Part shown: one piece after another, positions 915-26,415 of the stretch | Layout of the letters: the number at the start of each line of letters is the position of its first letter | Numbering within the stretch: the first letter of the stretch is position 1 | NCBI GenBank assembly: GCA_050873585.1 | Contig: JBNMJA010000006.1 | Location: 1-28,693, forward strand | DNA: 28,693 nt | Source: Bacillota bacterium | Lineage (GTDB): Bacteria > Bacillota > Clostridia > Christensenellales > CAG-917 | Direction of reading: 5' to 3' | Program-made: the position numbers and the translations under genes | The notes under the pieces: model-generated | What the model saw: only the letters and a program-made list of their open reading frames with translations | Databases searched by the model: none | Told to the model about the DNA's origin: nothing

Positions 915-2252
915 ATGAAGAAACTTTTGACTTCTCTCGTCATCGTCGTGCTCGTGGCGCTATGCGCGTTCACTTTTGCGGCTTGCGACGACGACGGCGG
1001 TGAAAAACTCAATATCGTGTTTCTTGGCGACTCTATCGCAGAGGCGTTGATAGGTGCGTCGCCCGTGAGCGAACGCGATAATTACGGCTATTACGCCATC
1101 GTCGGCAGAACCAACGATTTTAACTATTATAACCACTCTATGTCGGGGCATCTCACGTCGGGAAATATGGCGGATAAATCGGGCGAAGGTCTGCTTGAGG
1201 TTGTCTCGAGAAAAGACGAGAATGCGACTCTCATCCGCACGCATATCGTCGAGGCAGACGTGATACATATCTCGGTGCTTGGCAACAACATTTTGCAATA
1301 CAGCCTTGCCTCCCTGATGCTGGAAATGGCGGACAAACTCGCAAATATCGCACCCGGTAGCCCCGAAAGTTGGTATCAGGCGTGCTTCGACCGCGAAACG
1401 GACGAGAATCTGAAAGCAGAACTCAAAGCAAGATACGCGGACGACAAATCGCTCTTCGATTATCTGCACGACGGCGGTACGCTTGAAAACGTGCGTCCTT
1501 CCGTGTGGTCCGAAGACGGTGAGACCATTCACTTCGGCGATCGCAACGAGGGCAAAAATTTGGAAACGGCGGATCCGAAATTCAACTTCCCTCCCACATA
1601 TCAAAATATCGTCGATATCGTCGCTAAACTTCGCGAATTGAACCCCACGGCAAAAATCATATTCCAAAAAGTGTACAACCCCGTCTACGAGGGAACTACC
1701 CTCCTCAAAGAATCGGAATACGCCGCAATCGAGCAACGCATCGAAATGCTCGAACAAACGGGATATAAGTTTAAGGAAACTTCTAAAATTTCAAAAATAA
1801 GAGAACTTGCGGGACACCTTCTCGGCTTCCTCAACGGAATGCTTGACGAATACAATCAAAATCATCCCGAAAACACGGTGCTTACCCTCGATATTTGCAA
1901 GGCTTTTGACGACGTGACCAACACCGACGTCAAAAACGGCGAAGTCGATTTGTCCGCAAACGGTCTTGGCAGATCGCTCATATATCAAGACTTCACGCAC
2001 CCCTCTAACTTCGGACACGCCATAATCGCACAAGAAACGCAGAAAATGCTCGAGGATCTCGGCATCGCAAACGAAAACGCGCTTGCAAACTATAAGGCGA
2101 TAAAGTGCGACCAACTCGACAGAATATACTCGGGCGTTGAAGGATTTGACCTTCAAGCCGCAAAAGACGCGGTGAACAATGCGGAAACTTACTATGCAAC
2201 CACGAGAGCGTATTTTGACAAGACGGACGGATACGTCCCCGTCAACTATTGA
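915..2252 (+). CDS. SGNH/GDSL-family hydrolase lipoprotein
   Basis: Track ORF 876..2252, trimmed to the ATG at 915 (GGGGG RBS upstream). Signal peptide with lipobox (FTFAAC). GDS block (IVFLGDSIAEA) near the N-terminus and a DxxH block (QDFTHPS) near the C-terminus. Confidence 0.75.
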   Translation: MKKLLTSLVIVVLVALCAFTFAACDDDGGEKLNIVFLGDSIAEALIGASPVSERDNYGYYAIVGRTNDFNYYNHSMSGHLTSGNMADKSGEGLLEVVSRKDENATLIRTHIVEADVIHISVLGNNILQYSLASLMLEMADKLANIAPGSPESWYQACFDRETDENLKAELKARYADDKSLFDYLHDGGTLENVRPSVWSEDGETIHFGDRNEGKNLETADPKFNFPPTYQNIVDIVAKLRELNPTAKIIFQKVYNPVYEGTTLLKESEYAAIEQRIEMLEQTGYKFKETSKISKIRELAGHLLGFLNGMLDEYNQNHPENTVLTLDICKAFDDVTNTDVKNGEVDLSANGLGRSLIYQDFTHPSNFGHAIIAQETQKMLEDLGIANENALANYKAIKCDQLDRIYSGVEGFDLQAAKDAVNNAETYYATTRAYFDKTDGYVPVNY

Positions 2253-2268
2253 TGAGGAGGTAAGAAAC

Positions 2269-3063
2269 ATGAAAAAATCCGTTGTTAAAATCTTTGCAAT
2301 CTCCATAGTTTTGGCAATGCTTCTCTCTTGCGTGTTTGCGCTGTGCGCCTGCGACGAAAAAGACGACTCAAAATTTGAAAACGATACCCGTTTTGACGTT
2401 GACTACGACAACCTCAACATTATGGGTATGAATAAATTTCTCGTAAAAGCCATTAAGGGTGCGGCGATCGATGACGAGAACACGTACTTCGAGTTCAAAA
2501 AAGACGGGACGATGCATATGCAGATCCAAACCAAAAAAGGTCTGTTCGGCAGTATTCCGCAATTGCTGAAAACACTCGAATCAGCCAATATAAAAATCGA
2601 TATCGCCTCTGCCCTCGAAACGTTTGACGTCAAAGGAAGCGTGGACAAATACGTCGAGCCTATGTTCCCCGGCTTCACGCAAAAGCTCAAAGAGTACGAC
2701 CTCAAAGGCGCGCTTGGGCTGATTCAACACAGCCTCGGATTCAATATCGACGGACTCGACCTCGAGAACGAGAAAGTCAAAGCCGCAGTCAAATACGTCG
2801 GCGACAATATGGCGCTGCCCGCCGACTTGCTCGAAGCAATCCCGAGCGATACGGTGCTTCGCCTCACTCTCGACACAGAGTATGCTATCCGCAATCTCAC
2901 CGCTTACGACGGAACGCAATTTAGAGCGATTTATCTCGGATACAAGGTGAAAGACAATCCGCAAACCGCTCCGTTCGGCGTGTTTACGCTCACGGAAAAC
3001 GATACGGTGGGGCGTTTGTCGATAGAGTTTATGAACATACACATAGCAATCAAACAGCACTGA
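2269..3063 (+). CDS. Putative lipoprotein of unknown function
   Basis: Track ORF 2179..3063, trimmed to the ATG at 2269 preceded by GAGGAGG. The N-terminus MKKSVVKIFAISIVLAMLLSCVFALCAC is a lipoprotein signal with a lipobox. I recognise no domain. Confidence 0.65.
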   Translation: MKKSVVKIFAISIVLAMLLSCVFALCACDEKDDSKFENDTRFDVDYDNLNIMGMNKFLVKAIKGAAIDDENTYFEFKKDGTMHMQIQTKKGLFGSIPQLLKTLESANIKIDIASALETFDVKGSVDKYVEPMFPGFTQKLKEYDLKGALGLIQHSLGFNIDGLDLENEKVKAAVKYVGDNMALPADLLEAIPSDTVLRLTLDTEYAIRNLTAYDGTQFRAIYLGYKVKDNPQTAPFGVFTLTENDTVGRLSIEFMNIHIAIKQH

Positions 3064-3077
3064 ATCACACCTAACCG

Positions 3078-3116
3078 AAAAAACAGCCTCTCGAAAAACG
3101 AGAGGCTGTTTTTTTG
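3078..3116. terminator. Bidirectional intrinsic terminator
   Basis: Perfect 11-bp stem ACAGCCTCTCG/CGAGAGGCTGT with an AAAAA loop, an A-run upstream and a T7 run downstream. Confidence 0.85.
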
Positions 3117-3140
3117 CATGAGCACAAACGTGTATGTCGG

Positions 3141-3597
3141 GTACTTAAAATGCAACTTCCCCTTTCCTCACGTGTTTGGACTTCGGCGTTTGCGCAGTGC
3201 AATCCGCCTCGTTCGCTTTGGCTACAATTCGTCCACTGGACGGATTGTTTAACGCGTCGCGCCCATATCGCCGTTCCCCCTCTGCACTCTGTTTGAGGGA
3301 ACCCACGGCGACCGCGTAGCGGGGGACAACACTCGGCACTCACATAGAAAAGTACCGTTCACTACTTATGCCACTTCGCCTGCGTGGCGGCTTCGCAACA
3401 GAATGCCACGCATTCTCGTACTGCGCATCAAGTTCGGCGCTCCCTTGGGTCGGCGCCCTGCGCCTCCAATTCCGTCTTCGAATGGCAGATACCGTGTATA
3501 TGTACACCCTGAATGAGTGAACGTTAAGAAGTCCGCTCTGCAAGTTCGCGGTCGGTGGTATTGTTCCGTCTTCAAAAGAATAGATGTGGTCAAAATG
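3141..3597. repeat. Copy 1 of a paralogous non-coding element (candidate structured RNA or extragenic repeat), unclassified
   Basis: Collinear blocks shared with 22999-23395: 3141-3177 vs 22999-23035 (34/37 identical), 3266-3336 vs 23040-23110 (68/71), 3448-3484 vs 23225-23261 (34/37), 3510-3558 vs 23288-23336 (44/49). The centre is diverged. Copy 1 has an 87-nt insertion (3178-3264). No reading frame is conserved between the copies. Confidence 0.7.
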
Positions 3598-3706
3598 TGA
3601 TAAATCGATGCATAACGAGAAAGGCACGGCTTGAACAGAAACCCAACGTACTATTACGTACGTGATTTTGAGGCAAGCCGTGCCTGACACAGTTATTCGC
3701 GATTTA
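3588..3706 (-). repeat. Hairpin module A (conserved flanks, 12-bp outer stem, inner hairpin)
   Basis: Left flank GGTCAAAATGTGATAAATCGATG. Stem AGGCACGGCTTG (3622-3633) pairs with CAAGCCGTGCCT (3674-3685). Inner stem ACGTAC/GTACGT. Right flank GACACAGTTATTCGCGATTTA. On the minus strand the stem is followed by a pyrimidine/T-rich tract, so the strand call is tentative. Confidence 0.6.
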
Positions 3707-3753: not shown

Positions 3754-3790
3754 GATGCGTTTGCTAATGATTCTATATCTTTTTCATTAT

Positions 3791-3908
3791 GGTCAAACAG
3801 TGATAAATCGATGAAGAACAAGGAAACGCCCCTCGGGTGGCAACCCTAATGTACAATGCGTACATGAGTTGACAAACGAGGGGCGTTGACACAGTTATTC
3901 GCGATTTA
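3791..3908 (-). repeat. Hairpin module B, immediately 3' of ppiB; likely the ppiB terminator structure
   Basis: Same flanks as module A (3791-3813 and 3888-3908). The outer stem AACGCCCCTCG (3825-3835) pairs with CGAGGGGCGTT (3877-3887) and differs from A at 6 of 11 positions, all compensated. Inner stem ATGTAC/GTACAT. The right flank ends in the ppiB stop codon. Confidence 0.65.
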
Positions 3909-19821: not shown

Positions 19822-19850
19822 TTTTCTAAACGTTACACGTGAAACAATCG
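19822..19850 (+). repeat. parS: 29-nt direct repeat, left copy, containing parS (cGTTACACGTGAAACA, 19831-19846, 15/16)
   Basis: TTTTCTAAACGTTACACGTGAAACAATCG matches 20681-20709 at 26/29 positions. Confidence 0.85.
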
Positions 19851-20680: not shown

Positions 20681-20709
20681 TTTTCTATAGGTTACACGTG
20701 AAACAATTG
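20681..20709 (+). repeat. parS: 29-nt direct repeat, right copy, containing parS (gGTTACACGTGAAACA, 20690-20705, 15/16)
   Basis: TTTTCTATAGGTTACACGTGAAACAATTG matches 19822-19850 at 26/29 positions. Confidence 0.85.
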
Positions 20710-21131: not shown

Positions 21132-21167
21132 ACGACACATTGTCCGAACTTATCGGAAGTTGCAATA

Positions 21168-21201
21168 ATACATATTAGTTTACAAGTAAACTAATATGTA
21201 T
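21168..21201. terminator. AT-rich perfect palindrome (17-bp arms, 2-nt centre) between convergent genes
   Basis: The arm AATACATATTAGTTTAC, then the centre AA, then its exact reverse complement. It could act as a bidirectional terminator, but the stem is AT-rich. Confidence 0.4.
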
Positions 21202-21238
21202 GATTGGGTTTTTCTTCGTTTATTGAAGTTTTATCGCT

Positions 21239-22917: not shown

Positions 22918-22998
22918 GAATTAATAATGAACGTCCGTAAACTCTAAATACCTCTTTTCTCACGTGTTTTGTTCTTCCGCTACAAGAGTGAGCGTTTA

Positions 22999-23395
22999 GT
23001 ACCTTAAATGCAACTTTCCCTTTCCTCACGTGTTTTCCCTATCGCCGTTCCCCCTCTACACTACGTTTGAGGGAACCCACGGCGACCGCGTAGCGGGGGA
23101 CAACACTCGGTGCTCGCATAGATAAGTATCGCCCCCTTGTTATATCACTGCGCTTTGTGCGCCAGGCGTGGCCAACAACACGGCGCAGTCGCTTGTACTG
23201 TTCGTCAAGCTCGACGCTCGCTACGGTCGGCGCCCTGCACCTCCAGTTTCGTCTTCGAATGAGGAAATACCGTGTATGAGAACGCCTTGAATGAGTGAAC
23301 GTTAATAAGTCCGCTCTACGAGTTCGCGGACGGCGGTTCCATTCAGTCTGCAAACAAGTAGATTCCGTGTACAAGAGCAGATTTTGTCAAAAAAT
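22999..23395. repeat. Copy 2 of the paralogous non-coding element
   Basis: See copy 1 for the block identities. It lacks the 87-nt insertion and has an extra upstream copy of the CU-rich CACGTG box (22952-22970 as well as 23018-23036). It fills the rsmG-parA spacer. Confidence 0.7.
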
Positions 23396-23401
23396 AATTT
23401 A

Positions 23402-23421
23402 TGTGAAACTTTTTGTGAAAC
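23402..23421 (+). promoter_or_regulatory. Two direct TGTGAAAC repeats (parS half-site-like) abutting the parA -35 element
   Basis: TGTGAAAC at 23402-23409 and 23414-23421, 12-nt periodicity, ending 4 nt before the -35. Confidence 0.4.
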
Positions 23422-23425
23422 GTCG

Positions 23426-23454
23426 TTGAAAATTTCGACACGGTGTGGTATATT
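23426..23454 (+). promoter_or_regulatory. Putative sigma-A promoter of parA-parB (apparently leaderless)
   Basis: TTGAAA (23426-23431), a 17-nt spacer, then TGgTATATT (23446-23454). The ATG at 23461 begins 7 nt after the -10 and has no SD. The spacer contains TTCGACA, the reverse complement of the Spo0A-box TGTCGAA. Confidence 0.55.
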
Positions 23455-25119: not shown

Positions 25120-25133
25120 GTTTTAATTAATAC

Positions 25134-25180
25134 TGAATAATGAATAATTAATAATTGTGGGAGGGGCGCTGCCCCTCACC
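25134..25180. repeat. Left arm of an inverted repeat: 24-nt AT-rich segment plus a GC hairpin
   Basis: TGAATAATGAATAATTAATAATTG followed by GAGGGGC-GCT-GCCCCTC. The AT segment matches the reverse complement of 25310-25333 at 22/24 positions. Confidence 0.6.
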
Positions 25181-25286: not shown

Positions 25287-25333
25287 GGGGTGTGGGCAAA
25301 GCCCACCCGCAATTATTCATTATTCATTATTAA
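25287..25333. repeat. Right arm of the inverted repeat: GC hairpin plus a 24-nt AT-rich segment overlapping the recF stop
   Basis: GTGGGC-AAA-GCCCAC followed by CAATTATTCATTATTCATTATTAA. The stem sequence differs from the left arm but still pairs. Confidence 0.6.
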
Positions 25334-26415
25334 TTATTAATTACTTTCCCGTCGCTTATGCGGATTTGCTTGGCAGGGTTGGGCAAAGTGTACTCCGTGC
25401 AGGTGAGGATGGTTTGAAAACCTTTGGTCATCTCCAAAAGAAGCGTTTGTCGGGTGTTGTCGAGTTCGGAAAGGACGTCGTCGAGAAGCAATACGGGCGG
25501 CTCGCCTATCTCGTTTTTGTAGATGACCACTTCGCCCAGTTTCATCGCAAGCGCAATGGTGCGCTGTTGTCCTTGGGAGGCGAATTTGCGGCTGTCCTTG
25601 CCGTTTATCTCTATCTTTATGTCGTCGCGGTGAGGTCCGACGGTGGAAAATCCGAGATCCTTGTCCTTTTGTCTTGCGGCAACGATTGCTTCGTACAACT
25701 CTTTTTGCAAGTCCGTTTTCTCGGTTTTCGCTCCGCACTCGTATGAGAGGGTGAGGGCCTCTTTTTCACTGCTGAGCGCACTATGAAATTTGCCTGCGGC
25801 GTCGTTGAGCGTGGCTATGTATTCCATACGCTTTTGTATGATAACCGCGCCTTCCTTTGCAAGCCCGAGATCCCACACGTCGAGCATATCGTCGATATTG
25901 GGGTTGAACTTGTATTCTTTGAGAAGATTGTTCTTTTGTTTGAGAGTTTTGTTGTAGCGTTGAAGCGCAAGGAAATACGCTTTTTGCTGTTGCGAAAGAC
26001 CTACGTCGAGGAATCTTCTTCTTTCGTTGGGGGATTCCTTGACGAGTTTCATCTCGTCGGGAGAGAAAAACACCACTCCGAGCACGCCCAAAAGTTCGCC
26101 TGCGCGATTGACGGGGATTCCGTCCACGGCAACTTTCTTTTTGCCTTGCTCGTCTATCTGCAAACAAATGGAGTGTTTGCGGAATTTCTTTTCGATATTG
26201 AGCTTGATTTGCGCTTTGCTTTGCCCGAGCAAAATCATTTCCTTATCCTTGGTGGTGCGAGGGGAGTGGAAAACCGAGCAAAGATACACGCTTTCGAGCA
26301 TATTCGTTTTGCCGCTGGCGTTTTTTCCGTACAAAACGTTGAGCCCGTCGTCGAACTCGACGAGGGCGTACGGATAATTTCTGAAGTTTTTCAGTTCCAG
26401 CGAAAGAATTTTCAT
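25330..26415 (-). CDS. recF: DNA replication and repair protein RecF
   Basis: 361-aa ORF. N-terminus LELKNFRNY...LYGKNASGKTNMLESV (Walker A), signature SQGQQRT and Walker B LLLDDVLSELD. Confidence 0.93.
   Translation of the reverse strand: MKILSLELKNFRNYPYALVEFDDGLNVLYGKNASGKTNMLESVYLCSVFHSPRTTKDKEMILLGQSKAQIKLNIEKKFRKHSICLQIDEQGKKKVAVDGIPVNRAGELLGVLGVVFFSPDEMKLVKESPNERRRFLDVGLSQQQKAYFLALQRYNKTLKQKNNLLKEYKFNPNIDDMLDVWDLGLAKEGAVIIQKRMEYIATLNDAAGKFHSALSSEKEALTLSYECGAKTEKTDLQKELYEAIVAARQKDKDLGFSTVGPHRDDIKIEINGKDSRKFASQGQQRTIALAMKLGEVVIYKNEIGEPPVLLLDDVLSELDNTRQTLLLEMTKGFQTILTCTEYTLPNPAKQIRISDGKVINN

Follow-up and report, generated by a model that had tools for sequence, protein, structure and literature searches.

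The window analysed here, a 28,693-nt stretch of a contig from a bacterium of the Christensenellales, carries two copies of a non-coding element in its intergenic spacers. Copy 1 lies between the ORF at 2179-3063 and ppiB and faces the ppiB 3ʹ end, directly past a terminator at 3078-3116, while copy 2 lies in the spacer between rsmG and parA, upstream of parA and on the same strand. A sequence-only reading of the window had described the two as paralogues sharing four collinear blocks around a loosely alignable centre. We reproduced this with a MAFFT alignment of 3100-3640 against 22960-23440 and with a repeat finder: 34 of 37 positions are identical between 3141-3177 and 22999-23035, 68 of 71 in block 3266-3336 (with substitutions at 3284, 3289 and 3290), 34 of 37 in block 3448-3484 and about 44 of 49 in block ~3508-3556. 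The centre (3341-3414) proved as loosely alignable as described, with 31 substitutions and a 3-nt indel. The alignment also returned the 87-nt insertion of copy 1 (3178-3264), and its hairpin 3227-3234/3238-3245, with a U-G pair at 3229-3243, could be read directly from the sequence.

In other respects the earlier description had to be revised. The pair is real, but the picture of two paralogues was too narrow, as both are local members of a large family; the insertion does fold, but it is not private to copy 1 and recurs as an optional arm in at least 12 copies. The element boundaries had been drawn too tightly, and comparisons with empty-site and other alleles gave larger extents (Table 1). 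A degenerate third 5ʹ box at 22933-22969, detected by the repeat finder, belongs to copy 2. Two features had been taken as cues to the strand of the element, the TTGACA of the minus strand (23388-23393) and the terminator at 3078-3116; since both are found also in relatives without the element, they are flanking DNA.

Table 1. Extents and parts of the two element copies, given as positions in the window
Feature	Position	Strand	Remarks
Copy 1, long form with the optional 87-nt arm	3117..3586	.	Left end from the L191 allele; right end where similarity to other copies stops
Copy 1 5ʹ box, CCCCTTTCCTCA-CGTGTTT	3159..3177	+	CU-rich single-stranded box and first half of the P0 5ʹ strand
Optional arm Ins1	3178..3264	+	At the internal loop of P0; two hairpins; stem 3224-3248 covaries among copies
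Copy 1 invariant core	3265..3336	+	P1 (3269-3274 / 3305-3310), P2, P3, P0 3ʹ strand
Copy 2	22932..23377	.	Exact extent from the conspecific empty-site allele L189
Copy 2 upstream extension	22933..22998	+	Degenerate 5ʹ-box duplicate (22933-22969) and GTTCTTCCGCTACAAGAGTGAGCG hairpin module
Conserved AAT of copy 2	23007-23009	+	9-10 nt upstream of the CU box
Copy 2 CU-rich box, CCCTTTCCTCA	23019..23029	+	Unpaired in the consensus fold; most conserved single-stranded stretch
Copy 2 core domain	23030..23106	+	P0 23030-23039 / 23097-23106; P1 23043-23048 / 23079-23084
Copy 2 core helices P2, P3		+	P2 23052-23056 / 23069-23073; P3 23087-23089 / 23093-23095
Copy 2 variable hairpin P5	23156..23187	+	At least 6 family variants, all pairing; register ambiguous
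Copy 2 hairpin P6, CGUC-AAGCUC-GACG	23203..23216	+	Third pair U-G in 53/94, U-A in 36/94
Copy 2 hairpin P7, GGCGC-CCU-GCACC, with closing pair 23226-23244	23226..23244	+	Compensatory variants in the family
Copy 2 modular 3ʹ part	23245..23377	+	Two sub-repeats CGTCT.CGAA..CAC.ATTCCGT...ATAAG.ACGC and GTCCGC..GCGGAC hairpin; poor family conservation

Several other repeats were noticed in the window. Downstream of ppiB stand two tandem ~110-nt units (3587-3700 and 3790-3900), whose sense is that of the minus strand, both composed of GAATAACTGTGTCA, a long hairpin (internal TCAAnnCA…TAGGGTT, with compensatory stem changes) and TTCCTTGTTCTTCATCGATTTA. The unit looks like a terminator-type repeat and has only a chance lsy-6 match in Rfam; it also flanks elements in six of the retrieved loci (L003, L033, L037, L045, L058, L059), and its head motif occurs 68 times in the 1.44 Mb of retrieved loci. 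The spacer between parB and the following gene contains two AT-rich + GC-hairpin modules in inverted arrangement (25124-25165 and 25302-25343; …AATTATTAATTATTCATTATT beside GGGTGTGGG..CCCACCC), with a plain terminator (AACGCGCAC…GTGCGCGTTTTAT) enclosed by the two. A 27-nt direct repeat, TTTTCTAnAnGTTACACGTGAAACAAT, stands at 19822-19848 and 20681-20707, the two occurrences being 93% identical, 859 nt apart and placed on either side of an ORF of ~230 aa; it contains a CACGTG palindrome, as does the 5ʹ box of the element, and its position near gyrB/gyrA and rsmG-parA-parB possibly marks a replication-origin neighbourhood. Finally, a near-perfect 21-nt palindrome with a 2-nt spacer (CAATAATACATATTAGTTTAC/GTAAACTAATATGTATGATTG, 21163-21206) could be an operator-like site or a terminator.

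Family size, hosts and genomic context

A 20-mer taken from the identical core was found at 63 loci in species-representative genomes, of which 30 are true homologues in 11 MAGs. All true matches lie in MAGs of uncultured gut Clostridia, up to seven in one MAG, and many of them stand at contig ends, which is the signature of a repeat that breaks assemblies. The host records are titled Christensenella sp. UBA6880, UMGS1042, UMGS1170, UMGS1366, HGM11462, Hadza MAGs and others; the nearest relative among the species representatives, UMGS1170 (L032), carries the element in the same rsmG-side position. A degenerate core pattern spanning P2 matched at least 120 metagenome loci, which among the matches listed all come from human-gut samples and include single contigs of 80-330 kb with two to three element copies. 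With a core profile, 165 instances were recovered from 151 retrieved loci, 108 of them unique and full-length, and these full-length instances fell into 105 clusters at 95% identity. Our literature search found no description of such a family, and judging from these matches the window pair belong to a family of dispersed intergenic repeats, hitherto without annotation, whose hosts are uncultured Clostridia of the human gut.

Some element-bearing contigs carry other taxonomic labels: three (L037, L043, L058; CAVBBF010000…) are in a bin labelled Phascolarctobacterium succinatutens, one (L052) is in a bin labelled Anaeroplasmataceae and one (L063) is in Firmicutes bacterium CAG:238. The Phascolarctobacterium and Anaeroplasmataceae labels probably reflect contamination of the bins by host Clostridia, not a wider host range.

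A cmscan of the whole window against Rfam 15 gave no match at the gathering thresholds. A permissive scan (E≤10) of both copies returned only chance matches (lsy-6, RcsR1 and Antizyme_FSE), far below gathering. RNase P, tmRNA, 6S, HEARO, group I and II introns, self-cleaving ribozymes and riboswitches were all rejected for want of an Rfam 15 match, and a phage, plasmid or viral origin was rejected as no similarity was found in INPHARED, PLSDB or IMG/VR. Integron attC or VCR-type sites were likewise discarded, the copies being dispersed among housekeeping genes rather than arrayed behind promoterless cassette ORFs near an integrase.

Among the 86 copies with a gene called on each side, 51 lie between co-directional genes, 27 between convergent genes and 8 in divergent spacers. 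The last figure indicates that the elements avoid spacers that contain only promoters; they are found mostly where gene 3ʹ ends face or follow each other. On long contigs the copies are scattered 65-100 kb apart among housekeeping genes (EF-G, ABC transporters, rsmG-parA). No recurrent neighbour family emerged, as the ORFs of at least 150 aa within 2.5 kb of the ~165 copies clustered into housekeeping families only, and no transposase, TnpA, TnpB, IscB or RAYT was found within the same distance.

Both window loci differ between close relatives. The rsmG-parA spacer that holds copy 2 is 543 nt long in the window and 169 nt long in a conspecific allele (L189) whose RsmG is 98% identical. The spacer of this allele matches the DNA on both sides of 22932-23377 (95% and 99% identity), and in place of 22932-23377 it carries a 72-nt AT-rich + GC-hairpin, terminator-like module. 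The junctions of copy 2 read …AATTAATAATGAA|element|AGATTTTGTC… and contain no direct repeat. In three further relatives, with RsmG 78-83% identical, the spacers are 99-143 nt long and carry a plain terminator. The AT-rich + GC-hairpin module that takes the place of copy 2 in L189 also ends many elements, and it occurs 52 times in the retrieved loci.

At the copy 1 locus, a conspecific contig (L190) enters the element from the terminator and stops within it. In a second contig, which encodes the same flanking protein (L191), the sequence departs from that of the window exactly past the T-run of the terminator, at 3116|3117, and a relative with a 78% identical ortholog (L192) has an ORF-ppiB spacer of 88 nt. 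In two loci (L193 and L042), an element lies beside the same genes as copy 1 but in a different spacer. Taken at the level of these alleles, each window copy has conspecific or close strains in which the same spacer lacks it. The elements are gained, lost or swapped between strains; such polymorphisms could be deletions or recombinational replacements of alleles rather than transposition. Some copies are retained at the same site in three species (L007, L027, L038). Dispersal over 165 instances and presence or absence among close relatives at both window loci are the features of a mobile repeat, and the strain-variable presence is the behaviour of a structured mobile repeat rather than that of a fixed RNA gene.

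The surroundings of copy 1 have also been rearranged. Compared with its neighbour, the two-gene unit formed by the ORFs at 876-2252 and 2179-3063 has an inverted orientation in UMGS1042 (L042), and its arrangement towards ppiB differs in L193; in both cases an element lies at the boundary of the rearrangement, which suggests that the repeats mediate inversions.

Anatomy, covariation and strand

Read on the + strand, conservation among copies has a sharp onset at an AAT 9-10 nt ahead of the box CC(C/U)UUCCUCA. About 40% of copies, copy 2 among them, reach further upstream and there carry a CUCUACAAGAGUGUAGG hairpin as well as a degenerate second version of the box. The box is followed by a near-invariant core of ~100 nt, GUGUUUYCCC-UAUCGCCG-UUCCCCCUC…GAGGGAA-CCCA-CGGCGAC-CGC-GUA-GCG-GGGRCAACAC, in which P0 closes around P1/P2 and P3, and then by a moderately conserved stretch that yielded no fold, the hairpins P5, P6 and P7, and a 3ʹ part made of one or two sub-repeats of ~50 nt and various hairpin modules. 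P5 was met in at least six sequence versions, every one of them self-complementary. Homology between copies mostly stops 225-275 nt past the box, with a maximum of ~450 nt, so that the units measure 270-450 nt, with a junctioned fold and heterogeneous 3ʹ ends. The 87-nt arm is inserted exactly at the internal mismatch of P0, and a second optional arm follows the core in about 15 copies.

The core is ~100% conserved and the remainder of the element diverges to ~50-70%. This contrast points to selection on the core and not to recent spread, and it equally fits a functional RNA gene. At one orthologous site (L007 versus L038), identity is 94% in the flanking gene and 97% in the box and core but falls to 69% in P5-P7 and 48% in the 3ʹ part; the drop outside the core indicates that segments were exchanged among copies. 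Other repeat modules (H units and AT/GC-hairpin modules) co-occupy the spacers of the elements. From such comparisons, the elements are seen as mosaic, through the optional arms and through a variable hairpin that resembles a cassette.

The folding of single copies was unexceptional on both strands (z-scores of -0.4 to -1.1), and the evidence for structure comes from the comparison of homologues. RNAalifold, applied to 94 non-redundant copies, recovered P0-P3 and P5, and the counts below refer to a structure of 38 pairs in seven helices on this 94-sequence alignment. Pairing was retained in 96.5% of cells, against 90.4±0.2 in shuffled alignments, and 241 cells carried double changes, against 74.8±7.9, with none of the 500 shuffles reaching either value; in slid controls, with partners shifted by 1-3 columns, at most 54 double-change cells were obtained. 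The fold is real and under selection, because its compensatory double changes exceed those of both the shuffled and the slid controls, and the covariation that the sequence-only reading had asked for in homologues is therefore present.

Changes on both sides were seen in 13 of the 38 pairs. Among the clean examples, pair 28-93 of the alignment is CG in 51 and UA in 41 sequences, with two exceptions; pair 35-76 is CG in 83 and UA in 10; pair 36-75 is GC in 66 and AU in 21, with seven double deletions; pair 48-61 is CG in 52 and UA in 33; and pair 79-88 is CG in 87 and UA in 7. Pair 378-389 takes three forms (CG 69, UA 13, GC 6), and pair 374-393 is CG in 52 and GC in 34. The stem of the optional arm covaries as well (CAAUUCGUCC/GGACGGAUUG versus CAACACAUUC/GGAUGUGUUG), and the CU-rich box is the best-conserved unpaired segment. 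The pairing register of P5 is ambiguous, due to its UGUGUG context, and no consensus fold was obtained on either strand for the M3/P4 block or for the block of 3ʹ sub-repeats. A CCCCC/GGGGG pseudoknot and an alternative P0/P2 pairing were considered and discarded, being unsupported by the 28-93 covariation. An all-versus-all search for covarying column pairs was so permissive that nothing useful came of it.

The indicators of the active strand (thermodynamics, G-U versus A-C counts and gene context) disagree, and the covarying changes are silent on this matter, as they lead from one Watson-Crick pair to another. The proposal that G-U pairs favour the + strand is in line with the third pair of P6, since its frequent U-G form (Table 1) would be C-A on the opposite strand, and with P5, which as aligned is rich in U-G pairs, although in an ambiguous register. 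However, in 93 of the 94 sequences the MFE is lower for the minus strand (mean of -93.0 versus -80.5 kcal/mol), which may reflect mere G-richness, and between co-directional genes the minus strand is the sense strand more often than the + strand (35:16). The optional arm favours neither strand, as the U-G pair of the window copy is C-A at the same position in another copy (L081).

Readings of the family

The sequence-only reading had left a choice between a structured RNA family and an extragenic repeat family, and both descriptions hold at once, the first by covariation and the second by multiple copies of strain-variable presence. Many copies, target-site duplications and a lack of covariation had been named there as signs against a structured RNA, and only the many copies were found. 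We consider it rather likely that the element is a non-autonomous, recombining or mobile structured repeat of gene-3ʹ-end zones, which probably acts as RNA when it is co-transcribed. The elements would spread without an enzyme of their own, either as non-autonomous mobile DNA or through recombination between copies. They would be transcribed together with the neighbouring genes, and it is in such transcripts that the fold would matter. By analogy with REP/BIME and BOX elements, the folded RNA in a 3ʹ-UTR or intercistronic zone probably serves in protein binding or in the protection or processing of the transcript; alternatively, the fold could be a hairpin-rich recognition site of a mobilising enzyme. 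The core is invariant while the rest diverges, which speaks for a function of the fold itself, most likely as co-transcribed RNA or as the recognition structure of an enzyme.

Structured extragenic repeats of this kind are known from other bacteria. BOX elements of Streptococcus pneumoniae are modular intergenic repeats (boxA-boxB(n)-boxC), present in the order of a hundred copies and lacking an enzyme of their own. The family described here resembles them in being dispersed, non-coding, near genes and in about a hundred copies, with sub-repeats that vary in number and a fold predicted to be stable; it differs in belonging to another phylogenetic group, in showing no sequence similarity and in having, at one end, a single near-invariant core of ~100 nt with several helices instead of inverted boxA and boxC termini. 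REPs are palindromes of ~35 nt linked to RAYT transposases. Like REP/BIME, the element is extragenic and prefers gene 3ʹ ends and convergent spacers, with several repeat modules forming a mosaic in one spacer and with hairpins able to act as RNA stabilisers or terminator-like structures. However, its unit of 270-450 nt with a complex junctioned fold is not a ~35-nt palindrome, and no RAYT was seen in the retrieved DNA, so membership of the REP/BIME class itself was rejected. In the Bacillus cereus group, some of the repeats bcr1-bcr18 show compensatory changes, and for these the suspicion is that they are ncRNAs and not MITEs. The bcr repeats are likewise chromosomal repeats of 100-400 nt in Firmicutes, but of unrelated sequence and in other hosts, and the family described here has an unusually invariant core and cassette-like variable hairpins.

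A second reading, which we regard as possible but put forward only tentatively, is a new class of multicopy structured ncRNA in Christensenellales-like gut Clostridia, with ~20-40 copies per genome, in which the core (P0-P3) and the CU-rich tail are functional and P5 provides the specificity of each copy. These parts would then form, for example, a scaffold for protein binding, a regulator of the anti-Shine-Dalgarno type or a ribozyme that processes itself, and the gain, loss and mosaicism seen at the DNA level would be secondary.

More doubtful is a family of trans-acting sRNA genes of ~270-450 nt, transcribed independently from the + strand. The single-stranded CU box UUUCCCCUUUCCUCA would pair with purine-rich, Shine-Dalgarno-like targets, similarly to the C-rich motifs of RsaE/RoxS and to the multicopy LhrC, with the core as scaffold and the variable hairpin as the source of paralogue specificity. 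The covariation-supported structure, the high conservation of the unpaired box, the U-G pairs of P6 and a core conservation far above the expectation for recent spread are all consistent with this, and so is the sharp onset of conservation at the AAT, where a -10 element would lie. However, an AAT-anchored search for a sigma-70 promoter revealed no -35 signal on the + strand (mean of 2.55 versus 2.50 in the control) and no TG extension, and most of the -10-like hexamers had no A at position 2. Terminator-like sites downstream were not enriched on either strand (20 of 91, versus 17 in the opposite-strand control). A discrete transcript with its own promoter and a consistent terminator thus found no support; the 3ʹ ends are heterogeneous, the copies are dispensable among conspecific strains and the minus strand is the more stable on folding.

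A transposon origin was considered in two forms. A classical MITE was rejected, since neither terminal inverted repeats nor a target-site duplication are present at the exactly defined ends of copy 2, and its left-end arm pairs only internally, over 13 nt at 85%, with a site that lies 45 nt short of the right end. The absence of both features would fit a non-autonomous derivative of an IS200/IS605-type single-stranded DNA transposon (PATE-like) or its omega-RNA region, mobilised by a transposase encoded elsewhere in the genome and recognised through hairpins on one DNA strand. IscB/TnpB omega-RNAs (HEARO) and IS200/IS605 PATEs are comparable, as structured non-coding parts of mobile DNA that are several hundred nt long, have no TIR or TSD and can occur as orphan copies. 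The hairpin-rich make-up with compensatory changes, the sharp left boundary, with a short conserved AAT lying just within or just beyond it, the strain-level gain and loss of multiple copies and the G-T-tolerant pairs on both strands are also in line with such an origin. Nevertheless, we find it unlikely: neither TnpA, TnpB, IscB nor any other recurrent neighbour accompanies the ~165 copies, Rfam gave no match to HEARO or IS605-related RNAs even at E≤10, and the right-hand ends vary from copy to copy. To their left, the two window copies have different sequences (…AATAATGAA| and …TTTTTTT|), with no common target motif seen; as for the AAT, a candidate for such a motif, homology often extends upstream of it, and the two exactly defined left flanks are different.

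A cis-regulatory leader (a riboswitch or attenuator) of the downstream gene, such as parA/soj for copy 2, is very improbable: copy 2 does precede parA on the same strand, and the sequence around P0/P2 and that of the P5 region can also pair in other ways, but a co-oriented downstream gene follows only 29 of 99 copies, the neighbours are unrelated housekeeping genes, copy 1 faces the ppiB 3ʹ end, and relatives keep rsmG-parA with an element-less spacer of 99-169 nt and the same parA-proximal sequence, so that these empty-site alleles effectively refute the idea that copy 2 regulates parA in cis. An origin from a decayed protein-coding gene, or a family of genes for small proteins, can practically be dismissed, for although Arg-rich minus-strand ORFs of 111-125 aa run through both copies, the earlier verdict that such ORFs are junk holds: every frame on both strands has 1-11 stops among 18 full-length homologues, none being open, the substitution phases between the copies are flat with no codon periodicity, indels and optional arms disrupt every frame, and the variation in the helices is compensatory.

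The favoured reading, a structured repeat of gene-3ʹ-end zones, has consequences for the host bacteria, which are common in the human gut and are known almost solely from metagenome-assembled genomes. A repeat of such size and copy number breaks their assemblies, as the many matches at contig ends illustrate, and it creates strain-level structural variation beside core genes, for example at rsmG-parA. The family is also a clade-specific sequence marker. Although the element shares no sequence with BOX, REP/BIME or bcr, by analogy it would fit among the structured extragenic repeats in the way it works. Clean covariation together with near-invariance in more than 100 diverged copies from several species is not what a selfish repeat usually shows, and it makes the core a good candidate for a new RNA motif model (Rfam).
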